Assembly: GCA_000934665.2 (NCBI GenBank)
Contig: JYFJ02000087.1
Span: 170,828 to 190,827, forward strand
Direction: 5' to 3'
From: Catajapyx aquilonaris
Taxonomy: Eukaryota
DNA length: 20,000 nt
The notes beneath the pieces are model-generated. The model was not told the origin of the DNA. It ran no database searches and was given only the letters and a program-made list of their open reading frames with translations. Shown in pieces: positions 923 through 20,000 of this stretch (position 1 is the stretch's first letter; the number at the start of each line of letters is the position of its first letter). The position numbers were made by a program, and so were the translations under genes.

Positions 923-2759
923 ATGAAGATACCTTGCGCCTGTGTCTCTACTTCCTATCTGATCCTAACCTTGCTGCTTGCCACCATCCTTCGACGAGTG
1001 ACGGCTAAGATATTCGGAAGTTCCTTCTGGAAAGCAATGGCCGACGAGGCCATCTCCGCTGCAGAGCTGTGCGGATGCTGCTACGAACTAATCATCAGTA
1101 AGAAAACCCATTTTAGTTGTTTCCCCACCAAGAACCATCCTGCTCCAAACTATTCCGCCACAAGACATCACAATGCTTAAAGATATTGTCGGCATGCAAA
1201 TATTTGTGTCTTGAATCCTGCTCATTCCAACCGGGTGCCAAAAGAAGAATTAATCCGAGCTTGTTTCTAGTTGCTGACAATTACGGAGTGCTGATGTACG
1301 CAGCGTTCCTATTCTTGTTGACAATATGGTGGAGCATGAATTGGGGTGATGCCACGGCCTGTCCTTACAATCACCTGGAGGACTACCTTGAAGGCAAGAC
1401 TGACATTAAGTCTGTGATACTCAAAATCGCAGCAGAAATAGCCGGGGGACTTCTGGTCTTCAGGTGATTGCCAACATTTACTGTCCCACTAGTAGGCTAG
1501 GTGGTTAACACGTGTCCTTTTTAGGTACGTCCAATTTTTGTGGAAGCTGGAATATGCAGAGACACACAAAGGTCGAGCGTTTGAAGACTGCACAGCAGAT
1601 TTGCAGGTAAGCGATGTTAATTTTAGCTTGAAAGAGATACTTATGGTAGCAGCTGGTTCTTGGCCAAGGAGTCGAGCCTCAAGGTTTCCCTCTTTGGGAC
1701 CTTCAAAGCTCAGCAATTTGTCCTTTTAGTCGCTTATATATAGCGAGAATCTCAAATATTCTAAGTAAATTGCAACAATTTATTCCACTTTGCCTTTAAA
1801 AATTGTGCTGAGAGGAAGGATGCGAGTTATTATGTCTATAGCATGTCCCGCTGCTTATTATTAATGCGAAATACTGGTACAGTACACAGCAGGTAATGTT
1901 ACAATCTGGTTTTCTCTTACGATCCCAAGTGCTCCTTGGGTGCAACAATGGGGGGTGGGAATGTTTAGTGGCTCAGTGGCACGTATTTAGTGTCGTAATA
2001 ATGCTACTTCAGAAGCAAGTGGGTGGTGATGGATGTTCACAAACAAATGCAGCCAAGTTGTCTTTGGCCATATTTCACTATGATGGAATGAGATGTCAGT
2101 GCACCCAGACGTGCGACAACCTTCTCACAACACTGCAGACCCGACCATTTAGCAAGACATAACCAGAATAGTTGTCGGCTAACCTTGCCAATGTCATCAA
2201 ATCCACAAATAATAACAATTACTGTAATTGACAGGTAGCAGCCCTCTATGGAGCTCTGGTAGAATGCATAGCCACTTGTCTATGTCGCCTTGCGTCGAGG
2301 GCAATCGAAGAAGAGGAGCCTCAGAGTGCAGCAGCCATAGATTCATTCATATCTACGGCTCTGGTGGTGGCAGGTATGAGGACATACACTTCTGTTGGTC
2401 TCGTTCTCTTGATACATTGTCTCGTAAAAGTTTACATGCTGCATTCATGTTAAGGAACGTGTAGCCAGTGTAATTACGGAGAAAGAGAAATGGTGGCGCC
2501 AACATTTTGACGAGGTTTCTAACCCGTTATATTCTATTTCCATTCAGCTTTCAACTACTCAGGAGGATACTTCAACCCAGTTCTGGCCACCTCCCTCAAG
2601 TTCGGGTGCAAGGGGAACACAACAGTGGAGCACCTCGGTGTCTACTGGCTGGGTTCAATACTAGGATCGCTAGTCTCGGTCTACCTGTACAGGGTGCCTA
2701 TTATTCGAAACGCACTTCGGAGGCCTTTCGTTCCTTTCAGTAGGCTCAAGACAGCGTAA
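923..2759 (+). CDS. Aqp12L: Unorthodox aquaporin (superaquaporin, AQP11/AQP12-like), 5 coding exons, 266 aa
   Basis: Exons 923-1097, 1271-1463, 1525-1606, 2235-2373, 2548-2759 are all GT-AG, join in frame (801 nt) and end at TAA. The protein has AAELCGCCYELIIIADNYG, WWSMNWGDATACPY (loop B CPY at 1360-1368), HKGRAFEDCTADLQ, and SGGYFNPVLATSLKFGC (loop E NPV at 2574-2582, with the superaquaporin Cys 9 residues after the box), followed by HLGVYWLG. These match arthropod Aqp12-like channels. Confidence 0.95.
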
Positions 2760-3063
2760 AAAGACCGCATCGCCTTTGAAACGCCTAAGTGCTAAATACT
2801 CAATGATGTACCTGTTATGCGTACAATTACACGTTAATTGTCACATGTTGCTTGTTGGTAAAATATATTATTCTCTAAAATACAGCTTGTGTTTATTCTG
2901 ACTTCCTAATCTGTCACATGTTACCACAATATTGATCATGAAGCACAACATTCATTGTTACAATCACCTAGGCCATAAGCAGTTGTTTACACGACGTGTT
3001 ACACGACGTGTGAGTCCTAAATCACCCTCAAAAAAAAATCGGCGCTCCTCACCCGGGTCAGCC

Positions 3064-4389
3064 ATGAACTCGCTCGTGGTGTCTTTCGGGTTCTTGTCCC
3101 TGACGGTCCTGATCTCCAAGATGTTGGTCACCATAATTAGAAGGAACATCACTGACACAACTGTGAACAGACTCGCCTGCGAAGTCATCCAGACTGCGGA
3201 AGTCTGCGCCTGTCTCGCCGAAGTCGCAACAAGTACGCGCAATAAAAAGATGAGGGTCATTGACACAATCACGAAGCCAACTGGAGTTCAATCAACCTCT
3301 GGTCTCTTTCAGTAAGCACAGTCAGTGTCCCTTCGTCCCTGATAGCCCTGTTCTTGGTGGACTTCTGGTGGCAAATGCACCCACAGAGGGAGTCCTCACC
3401 TGCTGTCCAGATTGACGCTTTCCTACAAGGCCGACAGAACCTGACGGACATGGCGTTGGTCATATTCTCCGAACTCATTGGAGCCTTCGCAGCTCTAGCG
3501 TGAGTACTAATTGTCTCAAAATATCCAGATGTGCTTGTAACAATTGCAAAATCCGTTACAGATACATCCACTACTACTGGAATTTGCAACTGGCGTCTTC
3601 CCACGCAGGATTGAAATCCTCTTGCGTTCATGACGGTATGAAGGTAAGGAATCATGTAATTGTGTCTGTAGTTATGCCATGCTGAGATTAGGTTTTACAA
3701 ACTGTGCAGGTACCAGTGTTGTACGGATTTCTGGTAGAGTTTTTCGGCACATTCTTTCTAGAGATGTGCTCTGGCGCAAATGAGGGGACTCGTCACAAGA
3801 GCGCCGAAGCACTCAGGTCGTTGTGTGTGACAGCTGCATTCTTCGCAGGTAAAATGTCTCTACGGGCTATCAATGACATCAATTCAACTGGACCCGATCT
3901 ACTATTTGGTGTGTGCATATCAACCAAGCAGTGGACCAGGTCTAGACCAGGATTGCCAGATAGCCTTAGTTGATTTGGCTCCACAAATCTTTGTAATCTA
4001 GACCGGGTCCAGTTTCATGTGCATATGAACCAAACAGTGGACCAGGTCTAGACCGGATTGCCTCAGTTGCTTTGGCTCCGCCAATCAGTCAATCTAGACC
4101 GGGTCCAGTCTTCCTTCTGGTGGTGTGATGGCCCTAGAAGGCATCATGTAACCAGTAGTCTAATGGTTTCTTTTAATCGTCAGGCATGAACCTGAGCGGT
4201 GGCTTCTACCATCCGATAGTGGCCTTCTCCCAGTGCTTCGGCTGCAAGAGCCACACCTCTGAAGAGCACTTCATGGTCTACTGGGCAGGGCCAATTCTGG
4301 GCTGCATGCTGGCCACTGAAGCTCGCAAGTACCAGACAGTCAAAGATATCTTCGAGTGGCCTTTCGCCTTACATGTCAAAGTTGAATAA
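3064..4389 (+). CDS. Divergent tandem paralog of the AQP12-like aquaporin, 5 coding exons, 260 aa
   Basis: Exons 3064-3232, 3313-3499, 3562-3643, 3710-3848, 4184-4389 are all GT-AG and join in frame (783 nt) with no stops. Intron phases match the upstream gene (1,2,0,1) and exons 3 and 4 have identical lengths (82 and 139 nt). It retains TAEVCAC, FWW, SELIGA, LYGFLVE, SGGFYHPIVAFSQCFGC and EHFMVYWAGPILG. Confidence 0.9.
3864..4134. repeat. Intronic repeat/MITE-like element with an internal ~100-bp tandem duplication and inverted motifs
   Basis: Two diverged direct units (~3912-4013 and ~4018-4109) both start TGTGCATAT..AACCAA.CAGTGGACCAGGTCTAGACC and end TCTAGACCGGGTCCAGT. That end is inverted relative to ACTGGACCCGATCTA at 3887-3901. 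Weak outer termini GGGCTATCA (3864) / TGATGGCCC (4134) suggest a Harbinger-like MITE, but the boundaries are uncertain. Confidence 0.6.
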
Positions 4390-4884
4390 GTTGGAGTAGA
4401 CCGACTTGGTTTCAGAGGAGTGCGAGTGATTGAAAGATAGTGACGAGTGATTCAAGATTGAGCGGAGGGATTCATGGCTGAACACCGGTATCAAAATTGT
4501 AAATGTGAAGCAATATATTACTTCAAACTCTTGTTCTTTCATAGATGTCAGTTTCCAAAAACAAAGCTGTGGATATGTGGGTTTCTTACCACAACAGCTT
4601 TGGGTTCGTTTTACGAAGTCCTTGCTTTCTTTAGTTTAAATGTAAAAATCCGGAGTCCATTTTTTTGGTTCGTGTTCAAAGACAGCCATGAGGTCAGAGC
4701 TACCGCCATACAATATTGAAAGAAATTAAATTATCGCAGGCTACTAGCGTGGCCTATACCTGTTGACATTTCAAACTTGCTAACACTCTGACCGCTTTAT
4801 CTCAGCTCTTTCCCTAGTTTGCAATCAGTTGTTTCGAAAGGGCCTTACCATATTGATTTACTTTCCTTTTTTTTGCCACAAATA

Positions 4885-5163
4885 CAGTGAGTGCCCTTAC
4901 AGGTCAGCAGATAGGCACACATTATGAATAGAATCCTCCTGGAGCCGAATGCACTGGTTCATGGATGTGGCAACCTCTCCAGACCTTCCAGGCGGTGCAC
5001 CCACTCCTGGAGAACTGTGCGCAGTTGTGTGGGAGTGTCCCCCCTCCAAAATCGGTTCCTGCGCTGGAGGCCCTAGAAAGGTTTGCCACAATCATGTCAC
5101 GAGTGCATACGGAGGATTATATATCGATAAAGTGTGCCTATTCTGCTGACCCGTAAGACACTG
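4885..5163. mobile_element. Palindromic Tc1/mariner-type MITE (CAGTG...CACTG, TA target duplication)
   Basis: Flanked by TA at 4883-4884 and 5164-5165. The left arm CTTACAGGTCAGCAGATAGGCACAC...AATCCTCC...TGCACT..CATG..TGTGGCAACCT matches the reverse complement of the right arm over roughly 110 bp with indels. Confidence 0.8.
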
Positions 5164-5492
5164 TATTTGTAGCAAAATAATTGTTAATTAATATGGTGCG
5201 GCCATTATTATATCCGATGTGCTTACAGTATAGGAGGATTCCACTGTACTTTGTCAGTTACATTTACCTAAGCTTATGTGACCTTGAACAAATAATAATA
5301 ATTTCGTCTGCTGTAGGCTTATTGGCACTTTGCTCATTTGCCTTATTACAAGTTGAACATGATTTTATCCGGTTATAAAAATTCATTAGAATAAGCTCTG
5401 GTAGCCTACAGTACTTCTGTACATTCGTAAACTACTTACTGGACTACTTCCTAGTAGTGAAGTAGTCGTAGTGCTTTCGTAGTGCCTAGATT

Positions 5493-5572
5493 GGGGGGGG
5501 GGGGGGGGGGGNGGGGGCTATCTCAAATTGCTTTCCAGAGGGCCCCGATGTGGCAAATGTTGAGAACCACTG
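5493..5572. mobile_element. Poly-G tract (contains an N) followed by a solitary hAT/Charlie-like terminal sequence
   Basis: GTTGAGAACCACTG at 5559-5572 is the reverse complement of CAGTGGTTCTCAAC, a typical hAT-Charlie MITE terminus. The partner end was not found. Confidence 0.4.
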
Positions 5573-5615
5573 CATTTTAAGGGTTGAAGTAAAGAATGTT
5601 ATTTTCTCAGAAATG

Positions 5616-5970
5616 TTTATTATTTTATTTTTTTAAATTTACGTTACCCCACTGGAGAGTGGTGCTCTTTTAGGGGGTGGTAACCCACTGTAAATTCCAT
5701 TTTTCATATTTTCTTCAACTCTGGTGCAAGGACAAAAGGACATGGGGGTACAGATGGGAATTTTTTGGGGAAGGGGCACAGGTGCAGGTGCAATGTTGGA
5801 AAATGGGTCATGTGCAGTCCCCCAGGAGGCTAGGTTGCCAGACACCTCCAAGGTGCAGGTACGAAACCCTCCTGACGCAGGTGAAAGGAAAGTTCCCCAG
5901 GCGGGGATCGAACCCGGACCTTTTCACTCAGCAAGCCAAGTCGTTACCAACTCGGCCACCACACCTCCCC
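5616..5970 (-). mobile_element. tRNA-derived SINE
   Basis: The minus-strand head GGTGTGGTGGCCGAGTTGGTAACG...GGTCCGGGTTCGATCCCCG has a Pol III A box (5947-5958) and B box (5904-5914), but the acceptor and anticodon stems do not pair. It is followed by a ~260-bp body and an A-rich tail (TTTATTATTTTATTTTTT on + from ~5616). Confidence 0.75.
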
Positions 5971-5995
5971 TTATAAATGTATATTTTAAGGTGGT

Positions 5996-6266
5996 TTGGT
6001 TGGTTTGGTTTATTTGGAAGAAGCCAAAGCAACTGTGGCTATCTGGCTGTAAGAAGAAGCAAAGGTGGGACAGACGGAGGGAGAAACGAAGAGGAAAAAG
6101 AAGAGAGGAAAGACTGGCATCTCTCTTAGTCTGTCTCCTATCCCAAAGACCTGTCCGGCTTGGGTGGCCCTACCAGTAGACGAAGCTACCGCCGGCATAG
6201 CTCTTGGGGTCATGGGAGAAACGCAAACCCCACCACCACGATAAGGTGGAGATACCATCGGGGGGA
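5996..6266 (-). mobile_element. Short non-autonomous retroposon with RTE-5'UTR-like structured head, pyrimidine tract, 3' stem-loop and ACCA(A)-repeat tail
   Basis: Perfect 11-bp target-site duplication TTTAAGGTGGT at 5985-5995 and 6267-6277. The minus-strand head CCACCTTATCGTGGTGGTGGGGTTTGCG...GAGCTATGCCGGCGG...TGGTAGGGCCACCCAAGCCGGACAGGTC...CAGACTAAGAG resembles the 5' end of RTE/Rex3-Expander LINEs (from recall). The 3' end is AGCCAGATAGCCACAGTTGCTTTGGCT then AAATAAACCAAACCAACCAA. Confidence 0.8.
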
Positions 6267-6297
6267 TTTAAGGTGGTAATGCATTTTCAATCACATA

Positions 6298-6669
6298 GGG
6301 GTCGTCCATATACCATGTGACCGATTTTTGGCCACTTTTTGACCCCCCCCCCCTCCCTCAGTGACCGACCGTGGTATCCATTGGAACCCCCCCTCCCCCC
6401 CTTTTTCAAGTGGTTTTTTAAAAATGTAAATGTTATCAGAAAAAACGCGTTCCAAAATGATAGCTCCTCAACTAAACTGTTTAAGCACGTAAAAAACATG
6501 TCTCCCCATGTATTCTGGGTCGCTGATTTCGAATTTTAGGTTATTTTGAACCCATGTGCATCTGCAAAAGCTCCCATATGTGCCAATTCACTGTGATCAG
6601 ANGTGGTATATCAGCAGGACCCCCCTCCCCCCTCCCCCCAAAACGGTCACGTGGTATATGGACGACCCC
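6298..6669. mobile_element. PIF/Harbinger (Tourist)-like MITE
   Basis: 26-bp TIRs GGGGTCGTCCATATACCATGTGACCG / CGGTCACGTGGTATATGGACGACCCC (1 mismatch), 3-bp duplication ATA on both sides, non-coding interior with one N at 6602. Confidence 0.85.
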
Positions 6670-6778
6670 ATATATGGCAGTTCATAAAAATCAACCTATG
6701 TAGTAGTCATGAAACAATCATCTTTATCATTAGAAATGTTACAAAAATCTTAACACCCATTCATCCATACACAAAAGT

Positions 6779-9700
6779 TTATGACGGAGAAAACACTCCA
6801 CTGGCTCCACGTGGGCTACGTATTCCACTCAGTGACAAATGGCCATTGCCCATAGATGTAGCTCCATAGCTGAACAACATTGGGAAGTACTGAATCCGTC
6901 CACCAGACCACACCTGCAATTAGCAAGGCAATGATAAGTAGCAACCGACAACAAACACAGTTCTAAATGCTTACCACAGCAAGAAGGGCTCCATTTTTAT
7001 AGTCTTGCTGAAAGGTGACAGTCACAGGATATTCATCTTTCTGTCCTTGGATGAAGCCGCTACCCAAGAAACCAATTTAATTTGACAGGATAACTACTGT
7101 ACCATTTCAAAGATGGCACTTTTTATAGAAACAATAACACGTGATTCATTAAATATTTTAAAATTAAATAATAATGCTTTTTCATACCACCCTTCTGCCA
7201 AAACACTCGAGCCCAATAAGGGCAAAATATTATTGATTCAACCAGTAAATGGTACAGTGCTGGACATATTAGCCATCGCTGAATGTTTTTTTCCGGCGGC
7301 GGAGGCGGCGGTGTTACCTGGCAACCCTGTCTGGCGGGCCAATTCAAACATCAGCCCATGGAGAGCGCTTCCATTGTTGCCACTGTTTACAAATCGAGTG
7401 AGTGACGCGGACGACCCAGCCACAGGTCTCTTCTGCCTGCGCACTCACTCACTCGATTTGTAAACAGTGGCAACAATGGAAGCGCTCTCCATGGGCTGAT
7501 GTTTGAATTGGCCCGCCGGACAGGGTTGCCAGGTAACGCCGTCGCCGCTGCCGGAAAAAAACATTCAGCGACGGCTAATATGTCCAGCACTGTACTGGTG
7601 TCACAAACATTTAAATATCTCACTGAAACAATAATATAAGTGTCCACTTACCAAGGGGTTACTTGCAGTACAGGGGATGTCTTGGTCCTAAATAAGGCAA
7701 CGAGGGTACTCTCCCTGAAGCATACTGCTAGCCTCTCACCTGACGGATCCCAGGCCATGTCTAAAACAGAGCCACCAACCAGACAACCATACCCAGCGTC
7801 CACCAGGGCCAAGTCGGCCACTGGTATTGCTGCTTTGGCCCCTCCCCCTTCAGACCTGTCCTCGTGTGGAAAAATGAGTGCATATATCAAAGGATCATTT
7901 GCAGTGGCAAAAAGTAATGTGGAGCCACAAGGACTCCAGCAGGCAGCGCGCAAGTGGCCCTCCACAGTGCTCCACCGCTCGTGTGTCCAGCTATGTGACT
8001 CCCAAACACGAAACACGGAACTAGGGGTTGCTGACAAGAGTCGTCTCCCATCCTGGGACCAGGTCAGGTATGACACGCCGCCACCACCAACCCTTGTCAT
8101 TGGGACACTTCGCTCAGTTGATGCCTCCCACACCACCATGGTTTTATCCAAGGCTGATCCAGTAACCAACAACTTTCCATCAGGGTGCCAACTAAGAGTG
8201 CTCACTGGTGAATGCCCACTGCGGGTGAGGAGTGTGACACAGGTGGAAGACGGGCGTGTCACAACAGAGTTGGGGTCAACATGCCAGAGAAGTATGCCTT
8301 CCCGGCATCCAACTGCAAGCTCTGAGGCAGACAAAGGACGCCATGCCATGCAAGTGACGTCTCGCTGTTGCCGGTGCTTTAGGACTGGAACTAGTGAGGA
8401 GTGCAGGGTGTAGACATGAACAGAGTCGTCACGCAAAGCCACAGCCATCTTTGTCGAGTGCGGATGCCAGGCGAAACTGCGGACTGGGCTTGAGGGCCAG
8501 TCACGCACGTGGCCAAACTCCAAGGACAAAGCTTCAGGAGACATCTAAAAAACAAAGGACACATAGCAGTCATCATTTGAAGTGAATAAGTCAGTCAGTT
8601 AGGTCATGCCCCTCAAAGCTAGGGAGTTGCCAACAGTCACAGGAAACTAGTTAGCCATATGACCATAGCTTTACACTGTTATACACACCATTAGATGTGG
8701 ATAGAGTGATGTATGTAGCCTCTGTGCCCAGCGAAAAAAGCTCAGCGCCTTCTGTGCAAACCATGACACAGCGCTTGGAACATCACCTTGAGCAAGTTCT
8801 TCCAGTGCTGGGATCATTCCAATCTCATACCTGAAAGGCAATCATTCAAGCAATTCAGAAACAAACAAAAAGGTGTAATGTATCAAAAGAGCATGACTAA
8901 CAGCAAACTGACTAGTACTGTACCACCAAGTATTCAGCTCAAGAGAGCAGAAAGAGAAAGACATTGTCATGATTATTTCCTGTCTTCTTTTTCTCTTTAT
9001 ACCATCATTACTCCATCTGCCCTATCTATGTATACCAGGGCAAGTCAACAAAGAATGAGAAGGAATTTATTTTTCGCGGAATACGTTAAGCAGGGTCCAG
9101 GTTGATATTGTGTTTTTCGAGTTAGTCCCCATTGAGTTATATGCACTTGGCCCAACACTTCTGGCAGTTGTGGAAGACATGCCAGAACCCCTTTTTTTGA
9201 CATCGTCTTCAGAACCACCTTCTTCATAACGGCTGTTGATGATCCAAAACGGTGGCCCCGCAGTACCAATTTCAGACAAGGGAACAGAAAGCAGTGCAGG
9301 GAGCTAGGTCCGGGCTGTATGGCACACATTCGATGTTTCGTTGGGTCAAATATTGGGCAACAACATTGGCGACATGTAGCCATGCAGCAGGATGCAGCTC
9401 AGGACGCTTTCGTCGGATGTGTTCGGCCAGGACCTTCAAAACTGCCACGTAATACTTATCAGTGACTGTTGTATGCAGGGACACCTCATACTGGTAAACC
9501 ATTTCCCGGATTTCGAAGAAGGTAATGGTCATTGCCTTTCCTGCTAACTGAACAACCTCGGCCTGAATTGGGTTATTTTCAGACTGAGCTCGCCTGTTTG
9601 CATTCGGGATCTTAGTGGTGAAGCCAACTCTAAACACCTGTAATGATGGAATTCTGGCAGGCCTTGCCATACTCCGCTACCAGACGCTCTCTAACAATGC

Positions 9701-10176
9701 AACAGGGTAACATGCAATGGACTACTACTTGTGTACATGTAATTGTTCCATGTCGATGACTTTTCTGTATCATACAACGCATTTTTTCATGGCTGAAAAT
9801 TCAGGCTGCAATGTGGGCCATGTGGGCACAACAACTGATGTGTCTGACGTACCAAGCATGCATGGCCCTCTTGAGAGGCGTCTCCTCGCTGGGCAGGAAG
9901 GCAGCCTTTGCGCTCTCCTTGGAGGCAGTGGGTCGCAGCACCTCCCTGGTGACATGTATCACAGGATAAGACCCCAGCTGCAACGAACGGTCCCAATCAG
10001 TCGGTTGAACCACTGCCAATAAACACACCATTTATAGTAGGAGGGAGGCATACCATAGGGCTGTACTTGGTGATGTCCGCCGACTCGGCCGGCATGAAGT
10101 GCATCTTCCCTTCCTTCTCGCAAACGGTCACCATCCCAGGCCCCGGAGGTTGAGGGAATCCAGCCAAGGAGGTCAT
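6779..10176 (-). CDS. AAAS: Aladin (WD40 nucleoporin), 6 coding exons, 500 aa
   Basis: Minus-strand exons 10176-10054, 9977-9853, 8830-8689, 8544-7652, 7059-6975, 6913-6779 are all GT-AG and in frame (1503 nt). The protein begins MTSLAGFPQPPGPGMVTVCE and contains FRWAQRLHTSLYPHL, VRSFAWHPHSTKMAVALRDDSV, CMAWRPLSASELAVGC, GHSPVSTLSW, MAWDPSGERLAV, PCGFIQG and GALLAVVWSGGRIQYFPM, all aladin-typical. Confidence 0.95.
7255..7592. mobile_element. Foldback Tc1/mariner-type MITE in AAAS intron 4
   Basis: TA|CAGTGCTGGACATATTAGCC...GGCTAATATGTCCAGCACTG|TA. Near-perfect inverted arms of ~150 bp (7255-7405 vs 7445-7592) surround a ~40-nt spacer. Confidence 0.92.
9035..9700 (-). mobile_element. Decayed, internally deleted mariner transposon in AAAS intron 2
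   Basis: Minus-strand frames give IRRKRPELH...VAQYLTQRNIECVPYSPDLAP (mariner YSPDLAP signature), then after a frameshift FLFPCLKLVLRGHRFGS, then WAKCI*LNGD*LEK (mariner C-terminus with stops). A TIR-like TA|CCAGGGCAAGTCAA starts at 9035. The high-coordinate boundary is approximate. Confidence 0.85.
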
Positions 10177-10535
10177 CTTCTTCGCCACAGGAAAGCTCGA
10201 AAAAAGGACAACCAAACCGACAAAGAAGCAACCGCCAATGGCCGCCACATAAAGTGCCGACACCTGCCCGACCCTTGTAACGACTGCCAGCACCGACACT
10301 GTTTAAAACTTAGAAGCATAATTAGTTTTTTAATTAGTTCGGCATTAAATTTGTTTAATTTTTAGAAACCGTTGGTGATGTGGCAGGAGAGGGAATGCGC
10401 CTTGTTGGGCGTAGGCAGCTCCTCGGCGCGGGTTTCAACCGAAGCTTCTTCTTCTTCCGATCATGATGATCGGATCATCAGAAATGGAGGATGTGAGGTT
10501 GCTGCAAGGAGCGGCGAGAGGGATGCTGGAGGGCC
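10177..10535. promoter_or_regulatory. Putative bidirectional promoter and 5' UTRs between AAAS and PXYLP1
   Basis: The divergent start codons are only ~360-410 bp apart. The interval has an AT-rich core (10301-10365) and the palindrome CCGATCATGATGATCGG (10457-10473). Inferred from gene geometry only. Confidence 0.55.
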
Positions 10536-10586
10536 ATGGACCGGCGGTGCCTGGGAGGCCATGAGGAGGAGGAAGAGGGGGCCAGC

Positions 10587-12160
10587 ATGAAGCTCACCAC
10601 CAACAGGACTCTCTACTGCTACCTGGCTCTCACACTATGGATATTCATCGTGGTGGCCGGTCAGTGCACTTGCCGTACTCACTGGTATGCAGCGCTGAAT
10701 CATGATTGTGTCTTGCTGCAGGTCTGTACCGATTCATGTACAGGGATGCCCTCCTGTCCACCCCGCATCCTGCCAGCCGACCCACTCTGGACAGCTCCAT
10801 CTTGAAGCCTTTTCTGCGGTCGGGAGGACCAGTTAGCACCAAGAGGGTGGCTAAGCTGTGTAATGAGCCGGACAGGATATCGGTTGGGTCAGAAGGGGAC
10901 GTTCATACCAATTACACCTTGGAAGGGGTGGTTGTGCTTTTTAGGCATGGTGACCGGGGGCCTTTGTCGCACGTGCGCAACATCAGCTCCATACATTGCT
11001 CCGGGCACTATGATCCAATGCTGCCTCCATATTGGAGCTACTTGCAAAATGCGTCGAGAGATCCTGACTTTCTGCGGTTCCTCGGACCGTTCCAGACGTT
11101 TCCGTTGGCACCTGAGCATGATGAGTGTGCGCTTGGGCAATTGACACGACTGGGGGTGTCGCAACTGCTACGTACTGGAGAGGTGTTGCGTGAAGCGTAC
11201 CGCTCCCGGCTACCTACATGGCCACCTGTTACGGTCACGTACAGCACCAGGTATCGACGCACATTCCAGAGTGCACTGGCATTCCTCTATGCTCTGCTGG
11301 GGCCAGCCCACGTCACAATGGTGGCCCTGCGTGAATCACAGGCATTGAGCTTCTGCTTTGATGACTGCGTTTGCCCTGCAATTGAATCGCTGCGACGTCG
11401 CTTCAACAGAAATGCTGCGCAGTACCTCCGATCACATCCAGCCGTGCATGCCTTGGTTCGCTCCTTAGCTGCAGCCATTTTTGACCATGGTGACCATGCA
11501 TCCGATATACAGAATCCACGTGTGGTGGAAGATGCATTGTTAGCATACCTTTGCCACAATGCACCACTCCCATGTGTGACTCTAGGCACGTGCATTAACA
11601 TGGAACACGTCAACAACCTACTGGCATACAACGAGTGGGAATCGAAGCAACATGTCAAGAGCAAGCCATTGGTCCGAAGTTTTGTGCTGCAGTCGTACGG
11701 ACTGGTGCGAAACATCCTGCAACACCTGCTGAGAATGATGTCTGATGCAGATGTTCCACGAGTCATCGCTTACTCTGGACATGACAAGACCATGCAATAC
11801 CTGATGTTCTCAATGGGCGTTTCAGATGGTTCCTTGCCTCCGTATGCATCCAGGCTTGTGGTCGAGCTATACCGGCACGGGGCTGCCTCACATCCTGACC
11901 GCTTCTACTTCCGAGTGGTGTACAATGGGCGGGACGTTACCTCCAGGGTTGCTTTCTGTCGACGCACTGCATTCCCTGTCATGGGGGACCTCAACATTGT
12001 TGCACCTGACGAGAGGCGAAGACAGGCATACCTTTGCAGGATCGAGAACATTGTGAGGTTCCTACATGACGACTACTTTCAACTATTCAATGGCACCAAC
12101 TTCAAGGATGTGTGCTTTCCTAATGGATTCGCAATGCCGACGAGATTTACTGTGCTTTAG
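10587..12160 (+). CDS. PXYLP1: 2-phosphoxylose phosphatase 1 / ACPL2-like histidine acid phosphatase, 2 coding exons, ~503 aa
   Basis: Exon 1 10587-10659 encodes MKLTTNRTLYCYLALTLWIFIVVA, a type II membrane anchor (an in-frame upstream ATG at 10536 is an alternative start). A 62-nt GT-AG intron is followed by exon 2 10722-12160. Catalytic RHGDRGP and SGHD motifs are present, plus GQLTRLGVSQLLRTG, YSTRYRRTFQSALAFL and PPYASRLVVELY. Confidence 0.88.
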
Positions 12161-14660: not shown

Positions 14661-17351
14661 TCAGATTCCTCCTCCTGTCCCAACCTCTCCAAAAACAAGT
14701 CTCTTGTATGTCGCATTCATCTGCTCCAAGAATATGAATGTGAGGACTGTGTGAGGCCCAAGTCTGGCATAATATGGTGTGAACCCTTTCCAAAGGGAGA
14801 AGAACCCTTCGTGTCGAATGACCTTGCTCAGAACATCCATAGCTCCTCTGTACTCTGGCTTCCCGTCAATGATCTTCATGTTCTGCACCCTGCAATTTGG
14901 AAAGGTGCATGCTGAGTCAACATCTCGTGATGCCTGCAACTAATTTAGCTCCTACGGCACAAAGATATGACATAACCCGTGCAATAGGAATTAATCTCGC
15001 CCAAGGATGCACACCGTAGTTTAACTCACAGTTTGTTATGCATTATATTTGTCTCTCCCAGTGCAATGATACAGGGAGGTACAATAAATGAATGACTGAC
15101 TGATTGATGGTTAATTAACATAACTTCCATCCTTTTTATGAAGCATTACATGATATTTAAATATCATTGCCACATCTGGACTTCCTGACAGATCAGAAAG
15201 GGCGCAAAGTTTTGGCGCACATGAACTCACCTAGTTTTCGCAATGTCTACAGGCATGGAGGCAGCCGTAGTGATAAGTCCCGAGATCATGCTGCTGCAAA
15301 AGTGAAGAAAGATTCCCTCCCTGAAGTACCCAGTGTTAAACAATATCTGCTTAGCCTGAGAATAGGACGCCAACTGAGCCGCATTGACCACCATTGCACG
15401 TCCCATGGTAGGAAGGGTTCCTCGCCACAACGTAGCCACTCCTTCCTCCTTGGCCATCCTCGCCAGAGCATTGACCACTCCAGTGTAGTTTCTCCTCTGC
15501 TCTGGGGGTAGCCTCCCATCTGCAGTCATCCGGATCAGGCACACCTCGGCAGGAGTGCCCACAAAGGCACCTGCACATCCAGCCGCCATTCCCAAACCAG
15601 CCTTCATGGCAAAATTGGGTGGCTGTCCTTGCGGGCCTGAGAACTGCTCAAACAAATAAGTGTACACACCAAGACGTGTGGTGGTGTAGGTGGCTTGTCT
15701 CAACAGCCCTGCAGAGAGGCCACGATACAGGCCAGACACACCCTCGTTCTTGACCGTCTCCTGGATGACCCTTAAGCTGGTCTTCCGCTCACCCTTCGTG
15801 CCCTCACCACTCAGCTGCATGCGGTTTTTAATCAGATCAAGTGGCTGGACAAATAGCGTTGCTGCCATCCTAGTGGAATAAGACATGTTACATAAGATGG
15901 AGGTGTTTACCCATGCGCTGAATCTATTTCTAGACTCCCCACTCAAAACACTTCATTGCAATCTTGGAACGCAAGTCTGCAGGGCTGTTCATTCTCAGAG
16001 TCAAATATTTTTCAACCGTAATCTAAGGCAAGTGAACCATGCAATTTTTCCATCTCAATGACCACACCCTGAATACAAAGCCTTGCACCTTATCTACCAG
16101 TGACACAGGGTGTAAATTTTGCATCAAGTTTTACCACATTGTAAAACCATGGTGTAAAAATGAGACTCACCTGGGGATAAATTTGCAAATAAAGGCGCAC
16201 CTTTTAAGTAAAAAAAAAACAACAATATACAAGTGCACCTTTTTTTTTTTTGTAAATTCAACCCTGGTTTAAAAATAATATGATATCCTAAATGTTTTAA
16301 GATGTAAACAAGAGCAATTTATTCCTACTAAATTACACCCAGGATCACCATTCAAGGCCACCATATGGCTCAATACTATAGGCACTATTGATGTCTATGA
16401 ACAGGCCTTCCTCCTGATATAAGCAGTGCAACTTTCCTGTGCTAAATTCATTCTGTACAGTAACAAAAGAGACAAAAAGACACCGTCATTTAATTAATTT
16501 CCAGCAGTATGTCACTTGCACTTTGCACAATTAAATACCTCTAAGAAAATGTGATAGCGTGCAAAAAATTTGGCATGAATTGTGAATTCACAAGCTACAA
16601 CACAGTCATTGTGTTAGTTTTTCATTTACTCATGAGAAAAATATTTAAAAAATTAAACAAAACAAAATTAACCCTGGAACGATAACGTGGCATCTTTTAG
16701 GACCCCAAAGGAATTAAAATGCATTGAAATGATAATTACACTGAACTTTTGCCATTTTTTAAAAGTGTATAACAGTAAGTGCATGTTTATTTTGAATTCG
16801 CGATCATTTTAGGCATTGTTCAAATAATTATTACATTATAGTCAATACATGGCAAAGTATTATATAAAAATTAATAAAAATTAAAATATGGATGGGGTCC
16901 TAAAAGACCCCACGTCACCGTTCCAGGGTTAGGACGTAGCTGAGGTAAAACACTGCCAATACAAACAATAAAATACTATTTTAATTACTGGTATGCACTG
17001 TATGTGGCAGGTCACATATCAGGTGCTTTTACACTAAAAGACAAGTGCACTTGAGACGTGGTTTCAATAGCATGTCGCATTTACATCAAGGTGACTGCGG
17101 CTGGAGAATGCCTGTCTCTCTAGTGAAACTCAGCGACAGGTCTCCATTTGCACGCGACTGTTTCCCTTATTTTTAAATAATCATGATGCAAATGCCACGA
17201 CCCCCGTAGCATGACCCCATTTTTTCTCTCTCTCTCTCTCTCTCCATCATCCCGCACCCTTTGATACTGACCCCGCAGACCCTCCGAAGACAAACTTGAT
17301 AGCGTTGGGTATGGCCTTTGGTGCAGCAGCCGGTGCTCCCTTCCCAGCCAT
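14661..17351 (-). CDS. SLC25A11: Mitochondrial 2-oxoglutarate/malate carrier, 3 coding exons, 315 aa
   Basis: Minus-strand exons 17351-17272, 15869-15231, 14889-14661 are GT-AG and in frame (948 nt). Three carrier signatures (PLDLIKNRMQ, PAEVCLIRM, PVDIAKTRVQ) and OGC-specific GLSAGLLRQATYTTTRLG, RAMVVNAAQLASYSQAKQ and WKGFTPYYARLGPHTVLTFIFLEQMN are present. Confidence 0.97.
16672..16928. mobile_element. piggyBac-like MITE in SLC25A11 intron 1
   Basis: TTAA|CCCTGGAACGATAACGTGGCATCTTTTAGGACCCC ... GGGGTCCTAAAAGACCCCACGTCACCGTTCCAGGG|TTAG: 35-bp TIRs with 4 mismatches, CCC/GGG termini, TTAA-type target (right copy mutated) and an AT-rich interior. Confidence 0.85.
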
Positions 17352-18045: not shown

Positions 18046-18270
18046 TTGCAACACAAAAAAAGGTCAGATAATCCCAGGAGTAATTAAAACATGAATGAAA
18101 CAAACAAAAAATCAAACATATAACGTAGACTAAGAAATTTTCTAACAAATAGCGAAGCATTTATCTTTTACATACACACTCTACTGTACTGCATTTACAA
18201 TTTAACTAAGGCAATCTGAAACAAATGCTTAGTGCATTATAGTATTTAATGAGAAAAATATATTTATTGT

Positions 18271-20000
18271 TTGGAGAAAAGACTAAAAAACTCCGAGGTT
18301 CGACTTTCCATTGTTAATGTAAGAGGGATTCATAATAAGTGTGATATTGTTAGGAAAGCATTTGTTGATGCTCGTTTAGATATAATGTGCTTGTCTGAGA
18401 CCAAGAAGAAGGGGTGTTCAGTGGGTGATTTCAATGGGCTAACAGGTTTCTGGTCTGGTGTAGATGAAAGGGAGAGGGCTTGTGCAGGTGTTGGTATACT
18501 TATTAGTCCTAAGCTGGTGCACTGTGTGAAAGGATATAGTCAGGTTAGTGAGAGAATAATGTGGGTGAGTCTGAAGGTGGTTAAGACTTGGATTGTGGTT
18601 GTGGCTGTGTATGCACCAGTTGACTCATCTTCGGATGAGGATAAGGAGAGGTTCTGGGATAGCTTAAGTGCTGTGTTGGATGGGTTCAATGGTAATGACA
18701 GGATAATTCTTGCAGGGGATTTTAATTCTTGGGTGGGTGTCTCTCGCCCGGGGTATGAGGGAGTGTTGGGTCGTTATGGGGATGTCAGGGTTAATGGAAA
18801 TGGTGTGAGTTTATTGGATTTATGTGTAGAGAGGGGACTTTATGTGTCTAATACTGTGTTTCCACACAAACGGATTCATCAGTATACTTGGGAGAATAGG
18901 TCATTAGGTCAGAAGTCCTTGATTGACTTTGTAGTGATAGATAATACTGTAGGTTGAGGTCAAAGGTAGTTGATGCTAAGGTGGTTAGAGGTGTAGATGT
19001 TGGTTCTGACCATTACCTGGTTGTCTCTAGGTTAAGGTTAGGTATTGGATGGAGGATGTTTAAGAAAAAACCTGAGGTGGTTGAGAGGATTAAGGTTGAG
19101 CAACTTCCTGCATTCGGTTTGGAATATCAACAGCTAGTTTCTGATAGATTGATAGAAGGGAACAAGACAGCTAAGTCCTTAGAAGAGGGTTGGGATTGTT
19201 TCAAGTCCTCCTTAGTGAGTAGTGCTGTTGATATTTGTGGTATGGCTAAGGTGGGTTGTAAGAAGGGGGATCGTTGGTGGAACGAGGAGGTGGCTAGGGC
19301 AGTTAATCGTAAGAAGGAGGCTTACTTAGGAATGCTGCAGGGTAGTGTCCCTGCAGGGGAGTATAGGTTTTGGAAGCGGGAGGCAGCACGGGTTGTTAGG
19401 GAGAGTAAGAAGCGGGTAGATCTAGAGGAGAGTGAGAGGCTGGAGAAGGCCTTCAAGGAGGATGAGAAGTCTTTTTGGAAGACTGTTAGGAGGTTAAGAA
19501 CTGGCCATGGGGTTAGCGTAGTGGGTGTGAAGGATAAGAAGGGTGACATGCTGTGGGATGGAGGAGAGGCGAAAGGGCGCTGGGGAGAGTATTTTAAGGA
19601 CTTGCTGTCAGCAAGTGATAAGGCCAGTGTAGATGTATCTGTTAGCTTAATTGGGGATGTTGTATCAGCAATCAGGTAATGATGGTTGTGGGGATATTGT
19701 TAAGAAGGAAGTTGCAGCTGCTGCTTTAGGACTTAAACTAGGTAAATCCCCTGGGGTTGATGCTATTTCTTCGGAAATGGTGAGGTGTGGCGGGGGTGAT
19801 GTAGTTACTTTTTTGACTAATTTATGTAGGGTTTCTTTTGATAATGGTGTAGTTCCTAGGGATTGGAGGGATGCTATTATAGTACCTCTGTATAAGGGTG
19901 AGGGAGATGTGTGTGACTGCAAGAATTATCGTGGCATTAGTTTGTTAAGTGTACCAGGGAAAGTGTATGCTAAGGTTTTGATAGAAAGAGTTAAGAGGGT
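18271..20000 (+). mobile_element. RTE-clade non-LTR retrotransposon (APE endonuclease plus start of RT), frameshifted, truncated by the window end
   Basis: APE motifs NVRG, CLSETK, VYAP, LAGDFN, IDFV and VGSDH are present, with a frameshift near 18950. The linker contains RWWNEEV and FWKTVR. After a second frameshift near 19670 comes the RT N-terminus GKSPGVDAISSEM...VPRDWRDAIIVPLYKGEGDVCDCKNYRGISLLSVPGKVYAKVL, typical of RTE/BovB-like LINEs. Confidence 0.93.

Follow-up and report, generated by a model that had tools for sequence, protein, structure and literature searches.

Does the GC-rich 5' end of a short retroposon in the genome of Catajapyx aquilonaris encode a self-cleaving RNA? The question arises from a 20,000-nucleotide stretch of contig JYFJ02000087.1 (GenBank assembly GCA_000934665.2, positions 170,828 to 190,827 of the forward strand), called the window here. 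An initial annotation, made from the letters alone, described the minus strand of positions 6116-6266 as a compact multi-helix, possibly pseudoknotted RNA and proposed it as a candidate ribozyme, with a promoter or a translation-initiation RNA as fallbacks. We find that the locus is probably an ordinary retroposon lacking long terminal repeats (non-LTR), similar to a short interspersed nuclear element (SINE) and dependent on a long interspersed nuclear element (LINE), whose head carries its transcription signals.

The region is, as had been proposed, the 5' end of a short minus-strand retroposon. This 271-bp unit (5996-6266, minus strand) lies between exact 11-bp target-site duplications (TSDs), which read ACCACCTTAAA on the minus strand and are identical at 11/11 bases (6277-6267 versus 5995-5985), and its ends are sharply defined. 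From 5' to 3', it is made up of a GC-rich head opening with a C-run, a C/U-rich spacer, a stem-loop, the motif AAUAAA, and the tail CCAAACCAACCAA. It is too short to code for a protein and bears a simple-repeat 3' tail, as expected for a LINE-dependent retroposon. As first described, roughly 10 nt separate the start of the proposed structured domain from the 5' boundary that the TSD defines, and all of the strings quoted for it were found at the minus-strand coordinates given.

To describe the copies of this unit, contigs from four of five public runs of one organism (X1, X2, X3, and X5, the last being a second sample) were compared with positions 5900-6350 at a likeness of at least 80%. This stretch of 451 bases takes in two neighboring repeats, which are included in the counts of contig pieces: 1,910 in X1, 1,856 in X2, 1,805 in X3, and 73 in X5. 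Within the element, the summed depth in X1 was 17,700 to 125,000 per bin, compared to about 6 in the bin before its 5' end (6268-6283) and about 146 in the bin after its 3' end (5980-5995), and it dropped sharply at 5996 and at 6266-6267, that is, at both element ends. Furthermore, contigs ran on into unrelated flanks at two positions, namely, 6000, with 23 to 27 contigs in each of the runs X1-X3, and 6265, where X2 had 17 of them; the agreement of these loose-end sequences was about 0.4. The element belongs to a dispersed family of very high copy number whose members share their ends and differ in their flanks. The edge bins at the 5' and 3' ends each had about one-third of the depth of the neighboring bin. 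This similarity indicates that the two ends are equally discrete and thus that the element is a defined unit rather than a random 5'-truncation series of LINE tails. In X1, 271 of the 1,910 pieces, again with the two other repeats included, were at least 99% alike, and the repeats on 5900-6350 therefore look young.

The copy in the window is near the majority sequence. At 6075 and 6080, its bases are found in almost no other copy; at 6035, 6118, and 6213, where two alleles are common, it has one of the two. In X1-X3, 12 to 13 contigs per run continued past 6209 (6209-6238) with a related but diverged sequence, and two X5 contigs had a different sequence upstream of 6226. These diverged ends indicate subfamilies differing in the 5'-most 40 to 60 nt, so that the 5'-most part is not uniform. 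We found no second copy within the window. Among metagenome, viral, and genome contigs, none matched a 24-mer taken from the block that varies least, and a 19-mer over the 3' hairpin matched 11 metagenome loci, over 19 to 24 nt only, as expected by chance, and 0 viral contigs. Similarly, in a literature search with words of the element sequence, a single 12-mer matched, in 3 papers on unrelated topics.

The best-evidenced part of the element is its 3' end. In stringent-type SINE/LINE pairs, of which eel UnaSINE1/UnaL2 is an example, the 3' stem-loop and tail repeats of the SINE copy those of the partner LINE. The element shares with such pairs a 3' hairpin (6022-6048), a short simple-repeat tail, and a TSD; it differs from them in that its head is not derived from transfer RNA (tRNA), 5S, or 7SL RNA, as far as Rfam shows. 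Of 200 shuffles, 10 folded as well as the hairpin. Variants were listed from a share of 5%, and all findings on variants given here hold among those listed. The sole variant in the hairpin, at 6035, sits in the loop, whereas the adjacent positions 6049, 6051, 6058, and 6059 vary. This pattern fits a recognition hairpin for the reverse transcriptase of a partner LINE of the stringent type, which is the likely role of the stem-loop.

The signals for transcription point away from RNA polymerase III (Pol III). No B box was found in the element within 2 mismatches, and A-box-like sites occurred at 2 mismatches only; with the same consensus patterns, a neighboring tRNA-like SINE scores 1 mismatch (A) and 0 mismatches (B). 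The Rfam models for tRNA, 5S, 7SL, and small nuclear RNA (snRNA) gave no match to the element at E<=10. In addition, the element contains an internal T5 at 6099-6095 (element nt 168-172), which is the majority state, 2 to 3 contigs per run differing at 6098 in X1-X3. Since this T5 lies before the tail, a Pol III transcript would stop early, which argues against a classical Pol III SINE. Together with the lack of boxes and the AAUAAA at 13 to 18 nt from the 3' end, this makes transcription by RNA polymerase II (Pol II), or co-transcription, more likely. Two candidate likenesses to small RNAs were rejected. For a 5S rRNA origin, suggested by an apparent resemblance to the internal control region of 5S, the 5S model was silent at E<=10, even on 171 nt; for a likeness to U1 snRNA on the plus strand, there was no Rfam match, and this strand is the wrong one for the element.

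We thus favor a retroposon that would have spread in the genome through target-primed reverse transcription by a partner LINE, whose enzyme would be recruited by the 3' hairpin and tail. The head would supply what is needed at the 5' end, most likely internal signals read by Pol II and not by Pol III, and it may derive from the 5' untranslated region (UTR) of a parent LINE. The fixed 5' end would then reflect transcription initiation, not self-cleavage of the RNA. Among the fallbacks of the initial annotation, "promoter" appears the most likely.

A narrower form of this explanation, possible but doubtful in our judgment, is that the element is an internally deleted LINE in which a 5' UTR was joined to a 3' UTR, the head being the parental 5' UTR with its Pol II promoter. 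The absence of a small-RNA-derived head and of Pol III boxes would agree with such an origin, as would the closeness of AAUAAA to the 3' end and the discrete 5' end. There is also a precedent in the short internally deleted elements (SIDEs) of R2, which retain the R2 5' ribozyme and the 3' end (PMC3414825, PMC6765202). Like the element described here, SIDEs measure a few hundred bases, combine a 5' module with a 3' recognition end, and are mobilized in trans. However, SIDEs are site specific in 28S ribosomal DNA and carry a demonstrated HDV-like ribozyme (named after hepatitis delta virus), whereas our element lies between ordinary genes with a generic TSD, and its ribozyme is only a candidate. 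Against a deleted LINE stand the lack of relation to the window's own LINE and the lack of homologues in three sequence collections. This origin is a subcase of the favored explanation and is silent on catalysis.

The initial annotation had taken the helices of the head as the mark of a compact catalytic RNA. Our analysis does not support this claim, since the head shows no excess folding stability and no Rfam match, and the HDV-like thread that can be drawn through it is matched by a share of the shuffled sequences. The minimum free energy (MFE) of the minus strand of 6116-6266 (G 45, C 42, U 35, and A 29 of 151 bases) was -52.2 kcal/mol, compared to -51.6 ± 4.2 kcal/mol in 200 dinucleotide shuffles (z -0.13), and this fold lacks the closing helix. 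Extending the sequence by six bases to 6110 (157 nt) gave a z of -0.45 and made the closing helix appear; with the full 271-nt element (z -0.77), this helix was lost again. The opposite strand folds better (z -1.50). In the 157-nt context, the pairing probability was high for the closing helix (0.99), CCGGC/GCCGG (0.99), and UCUCC/GGAGA (0.91) and intermediate for GUUUG/CAGAC (0.57), while 3 of the 7 helices fell below 0.06, namely, the hairpin (0.007), GACC/GGUC (0.009), and GGUAG/CUACU (0.055). The CCGGC/GCCGG core pairs in all three minus-strand folds (6116-6266, to 6110, and full element). The full nested structure first drawn for the head has an energy of -31.8, versus -54.6 for the MFE.

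Counts of helices led to the same result. An uninterrupted helix of at least 8 bp with at most one G.U occurred in 421 of 1000 shuffles, and one spanning at least 100 nt occurred in 93 of 1000; helices of at least 6 bp numbered 33 in the real sequence and 25.1 ± 4.8 in shuffles. The helices listed are thus not beyond chance expectation. Many helices are what a sequence of 58% G+C and of such length would form regardless, although some of them may still be kept as a general structured module. As for the individual elements, the closing helix exists, but it has 9 bp instead of the 8 originally given (UGGUAUCUC/GAGAUGCCA, 6257-6249/6123-6115, with one G.U). The hairpin CCAC/GUGG can be found at 6249-6246/6239-6236 but shares C6249 with the closing helix. 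The candidate loop pseudoknot CUUA/UAAG, with its 4 bp, is too short to be given any weight.

The search for a known ribozyme family gave no credible match at any threshold used. At gathering thresholds, Rfam returned no match in the entire window, and a search to E=10 on 901, 171, and 99 nt returned only chance-level matches to microRNAs, long noncoding RNAs, and cis-regulatory elements. The models for hammerhead, pistol, hatchet, twister-sister, hairpin, and VS ribozymes gave no match at E<=10, and neither did the HDV, CPEB3, and drz-type models, which cannot score pseudoknots. This screen is insensitive to decayed heads, as the adjacent and clearly tRNA-like SINE went unreported.

Several points weigh against the explanation that we favor. 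First, no partner LINE was identified, and no sequence is common to the element and the sole LINE of the window (18253-19998). Second, the promoter, the transcription start, and the polymerase are inferred. Third, no substitution is listed for the 22-nt block at 6119-6140 in any of the four runs. Fourth, the pattern of variants gives a weak hint that some structure was maintained in the source copies. When the 20 head variants were placed on the 157-nt MFE fold, 16 fell on paired bases, where 11 keep the pair by a one-sided change and 5 break it; those with a share of at least 9.5% in X1 all keep the pair (6/6). At 6118, a common G>A change in the RNA, with about 54% of the depth in X1, converts a U.G pair of the closing helix to U-A. 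Pairs are disrupted in X5 by 6165 A>U (60%) and 6190 G>A (30%), both of them common there. Two-sided compensation is not visible, because linkage between sites is not reported. Retention of structure is expected for many retroposon heads and is silent on catalysis. Finally, an HDV-like fold can be drawn at nt 1 to 3, the expected site of a 5' processing ribozyme, and is equaled by only 158 to 194 of 2000 shuffles.

Among the variants listed across 5996-6266, C>U (12) is in excess over G>A (6) in the RNA sense. In the C-rich 3' part, C>U affected 6 of 42 C and G>A affected 2 of 12 G, which are similar per-base rates, and the excess probably reflects base composition and not editing.

According to the HDV-like fold, the head would be a ribozyme with a nested double pseudoknot, cutting co-transcripts at the first base of the element and staying on its 5' end, as in R2, RTE, and L1Tc with its short partner NARTc. 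From what the sequence offers, we consider this unlikely, and the same holds for the broader claim that the first ~150 nt are a self-cleaving RNA of noncanonical, HDV-like topology, within which an entirely new ribozyme class would take the smaller share. The initial annotation had been unable to thread the sequence onto HDV. A thread can in fact be drawn if one mismatch in P1 is accepted, while none was found with a fully paired P1. With nt 1 at 6266, P1 would be formed by nt 2-8 and nt 32-38, followed by J1/2 (AU) and by P2 (6256-6249/6123-6116); P3 would be CAC/GUG, that is, the hairpin of the initial annotation, with CUUAUC as L3, P4 would be the large 6226-6130 domain, and J4/2 would be CUAAGA, with C6129 as the candidate catalytic base. 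The descriptor was our own, built from features of the family, and not a published one. With the thread anchored at nt 1 to 3 and one P1 mismatch, matches were found in 194 of 2000 shuffles when P1.1 had at least 1 pair and in 158 of 2000 when it had 2 pairs. At this rate of 8 to 10%, the thread is a lead and not evidence. Without the anchor, 147 to 174 of 300 shuffles (49 to 58%) matched. When P1 had to be fully paired, the element gave 0 matches, and shuffles gave 25/2000 (anchored) and 69/300 (unanchored).

Other features of the head speak for such a fold. The 157-nt MFE leaves the C-run at nt 2-7 free, and with it most of the G-rich run that would be its partner, G38 being taken up by the basal part of the following helix; a pseudoknot is thus open topologically. 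P2 gains strength from the common variant at 6118, and J4/2 and the 3' strand of P2 lie in or beside the block without listed variants. CUAA (6129-6126) precedes the 3' strand of P2 and agrees with the C-N-R-A pattern for J4/2, a weak argument when taken alone. HDV-like ribozymes cleave at the nucleotide that opens P1 and need a spacer to separate P1 from P2 (PMC4908430); both features fit the thread. Moreover, the element has no Pol III promoter and may lie in the transcribed region of a same-strand aladin gene, so that its release from co-transcripts would make sense.

On the other hand, the middle of P1 would hold a C.U mismatch, and with no variant listed at this place, the mismatch appears to be what most copies have. 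HDV-like ribozymes typically open P1 with a G.U pair, and the first pair here is not G.U. P1.1 would be weak, of the G.U/A-U type, and the Rfam models of HDV-like ribozymes do not match. Additionally, the noisy consensus of the loose ends at 6209 (agreement of about 0.6) differs within the 3' strands of P1 and P3, the partner strands of both being outside its view. If the HDV-like reading were nevertheless true, its noncanonical features would be a mismatched P1 without a G.U opening, a P4 of about 100 nt, and a P2 of 8 to 9 bp. The cut at the first base would release from host co-transcripts a retroposon that has no promoter and cannot be transcribed by Pol III, and it would add a high-copy, SINE-sized carrier to the non-LTR elements that use a 5' ribozyme for release from host transcripts. 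It would also mean that searches with covariance models and with strict descriptors can both miss ribozymes of this sort.

The closest known parallel to such an arrangement is L1Tc/NARTc of Trypanosoma cruzi, in which the first 77 nt hold both the Pr77 promoter and the HDV-like ribozyme L1TcRz (PMC3383444, PMC3185411, PMC6765202). NARTc and our element are both short non-autonomous non-LTR elements of a high-copy family with a module at the extreme 5' end, and in both, one 5' segment could act as promoter and processing signal. They differ in that we found no similarity of sequence or of covariance model and in that the host here is an animal and not a trypanosomatid. Furthermore, the HDV-like fold of our element, known from sequence alone, needs a mismatched P1 and is equaled by 8 to 10% of shuffles. 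Schistosome elements with hammerhead ribozymes are likewise SINE-sized retroposons with a self-cleaving RNA proposed in their life cycle (PMC6765202). However, they are Pol III transcribed, often in tandem, and carry a recognizable hammerhead (PMC6765202), whereas our copy is solitary and the hammerhead models do not match it.

The least probable of the proposals, that the center of the head descends, in a degenerate or rearranged form, from a twister ribozyme such as that at the 5' end of the RTE-type element Perere-3 of Schistosoma, is one to which we give hardly any credence: as a member of the twister family the head was rejected, since the defining loops are absent, the models are silent, and the position is wrong, and distant descent keeps a very small probability. 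What suggested it is a series of blocks collinear with those tabulated for Schistosoma mansoni twisters (PMC8501958): CUCC (6218-6215) and GGAG (6138-6135) lie in the P2 position, a CCGG-closed stem around CCCAAGC (6164-6158) resembles P4/L4, and there is a GUAGCU-containing hairpin. Both sequences lie in the 5' part of a non-LTR retroposon with a simple-repeat 3' tail (PMC8501958), and a diverged X5 loose-end copy retains CCCAAG. However, the three Rfam twister models (P1, P3, and P5 permutations) were silent at E<=10 on 901, 171, and 99 nt. Measured against the same table (PMC8501958), the head has UUU instead of UAA 5' of P2 and ACAGAC instead of GAGGG after P2', its L2 is without GC, and the UAAA-type L2' is absent. 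The place of the catalytic internal loop is taken by a further helix, built from about 16 to 18 additional nucleotides per side. In Perere-3, the TSD abuts the AA of the cleavage site (PMC8501958); in our element, by contrast, the candidate P2 is set back 48 nt from the 5' end, and the depth shows no step at ~6220. By our estimate, when ~150 nt are compared with a dozen familiar ribozyme motifs, a 7- to 8-mer match to one of them is not rare.

The retroposon that we favor adds one more short family to those of animal genomes, mainly of use for repeat annotation. As a young-looking family with no Pol III boxes and an internal T5, it is also a reasonable case for studying how such elements are transcribed. 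The coordinates of its features are given in Table 1.

Table 1. Features of the retroposon and its flanks, in window coordinates
Feature	Position	Strand	Basis
SINE-like non-autonomous non-LTR element, 271 bp	5996..6266	minus	TSD on both sides, contig depth edges
Upstream TSD copy	6267..6277		Identity to 5985-5995; summed contig depth of 3-7 in bin 6268-6283 (X1-X3)
Downstream TSD copy	5985..5995		Summed depth of 101-146 in bin 5980-5995 (X1-X3)
GC-rich 5' head, domain of the initial annotation	6115..6266	minus	Strings, pairing probabilities, fold
Closing helix, 5' strand, 9 bp, pairs with 6115-6123	6249..6257	minus	Pairing probability of 0.99 in 157-nt context
Closing helix, 3' strand	6115..6123	minus	Helix search; common variant at 6118
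22-nt block with no variant listed, within zone of highest summed depth	6119..6140	minus	Variants listed, four runs
Sub-hairpin closed by CCGGC/GCCGG, holding CCCAAGC (6164-6158)	6155..6195	minus	Folds, pairing probability
C/U-rich spacer with U5 run 6099-6095 (element nt 168-172)	6057..6114	minus	Sequence reading, box search
3' stem-loop, 11 bp with one bulge	6022..6048	minus	-10.0 kcal/mol, z -1.97
AAUAAA (6014-6009), then simple-repeat tail CCAAACCAACCAA (6008-5996)	5996..6014	minus	Direct reading

The window also holds long uninterrupted exons. An exon for an aladin-type WD propeller, of unusual length, lies at 7648-8544 on the minus strand (E 1.2e-125), and further long exons encode a branch-2 histidine phosphatase (10706-12160, plus) and a mitochondrial carrier (15227-15952, minus). 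The retroposon, being downstream of the same-strand aladin exon, may lie in an intron or UTR of the aladin gene. A frameshifted LINE fragment with endonuclease and reverse transcriptase runs from 18253 to 19998 on the plus strand, up to the window end, in three overlapping frames (Exo_endo_phos, E 3.6e-6).

Repeats of other kinds surround the element. The tRNA-like SINE occupies 5890-5970 on the minus strand, 25 bp downstream of the element, with an A box at ~5958 (1 mismatch) and a perfect B box at ~5914. Its depth in X1-X3 was 98,000 to 177,000 per bin over 5900-5963, and 72 to 78 contigs per run end at 5970. ARAGORN found no tRNA genes in the window, and this SINE was reported neither by ARAGORN nor by Rfam (E<=10). 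Close to the retroposon, on its upstream side, ~370 bp rich in G-runs are bounded by a 30-bp inverted repeat (93%; 6298-6327/6640-6669), and this 6298-6669 unit may be a DNA transposon resembling a miniature inverted-repeat transposable element. The summed depth of 1,400 to 11,300 in bins 6284-6347 (X1-X3) indicates that this stretch is also repeated in the genome.

Farther away, 344 bp at 7252-7595, just downstream of the aladin exon, equal their own reverse complement at 89% identity and thus form a palindrome or hairpin-forming repeat. A weaker self-inverted stretch is located at 4838-5206 (66% over ~400 bp), and a tandem duplication of ~100 bp is located at 3912-4013/4018-4109 (81% identity). 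C or G homopolymer-like tracts occur around the repeats at 5490-5513, 6341-6357, 6383-6405, and 6615-6638; two of them contain N, and the N count of the window is 2.

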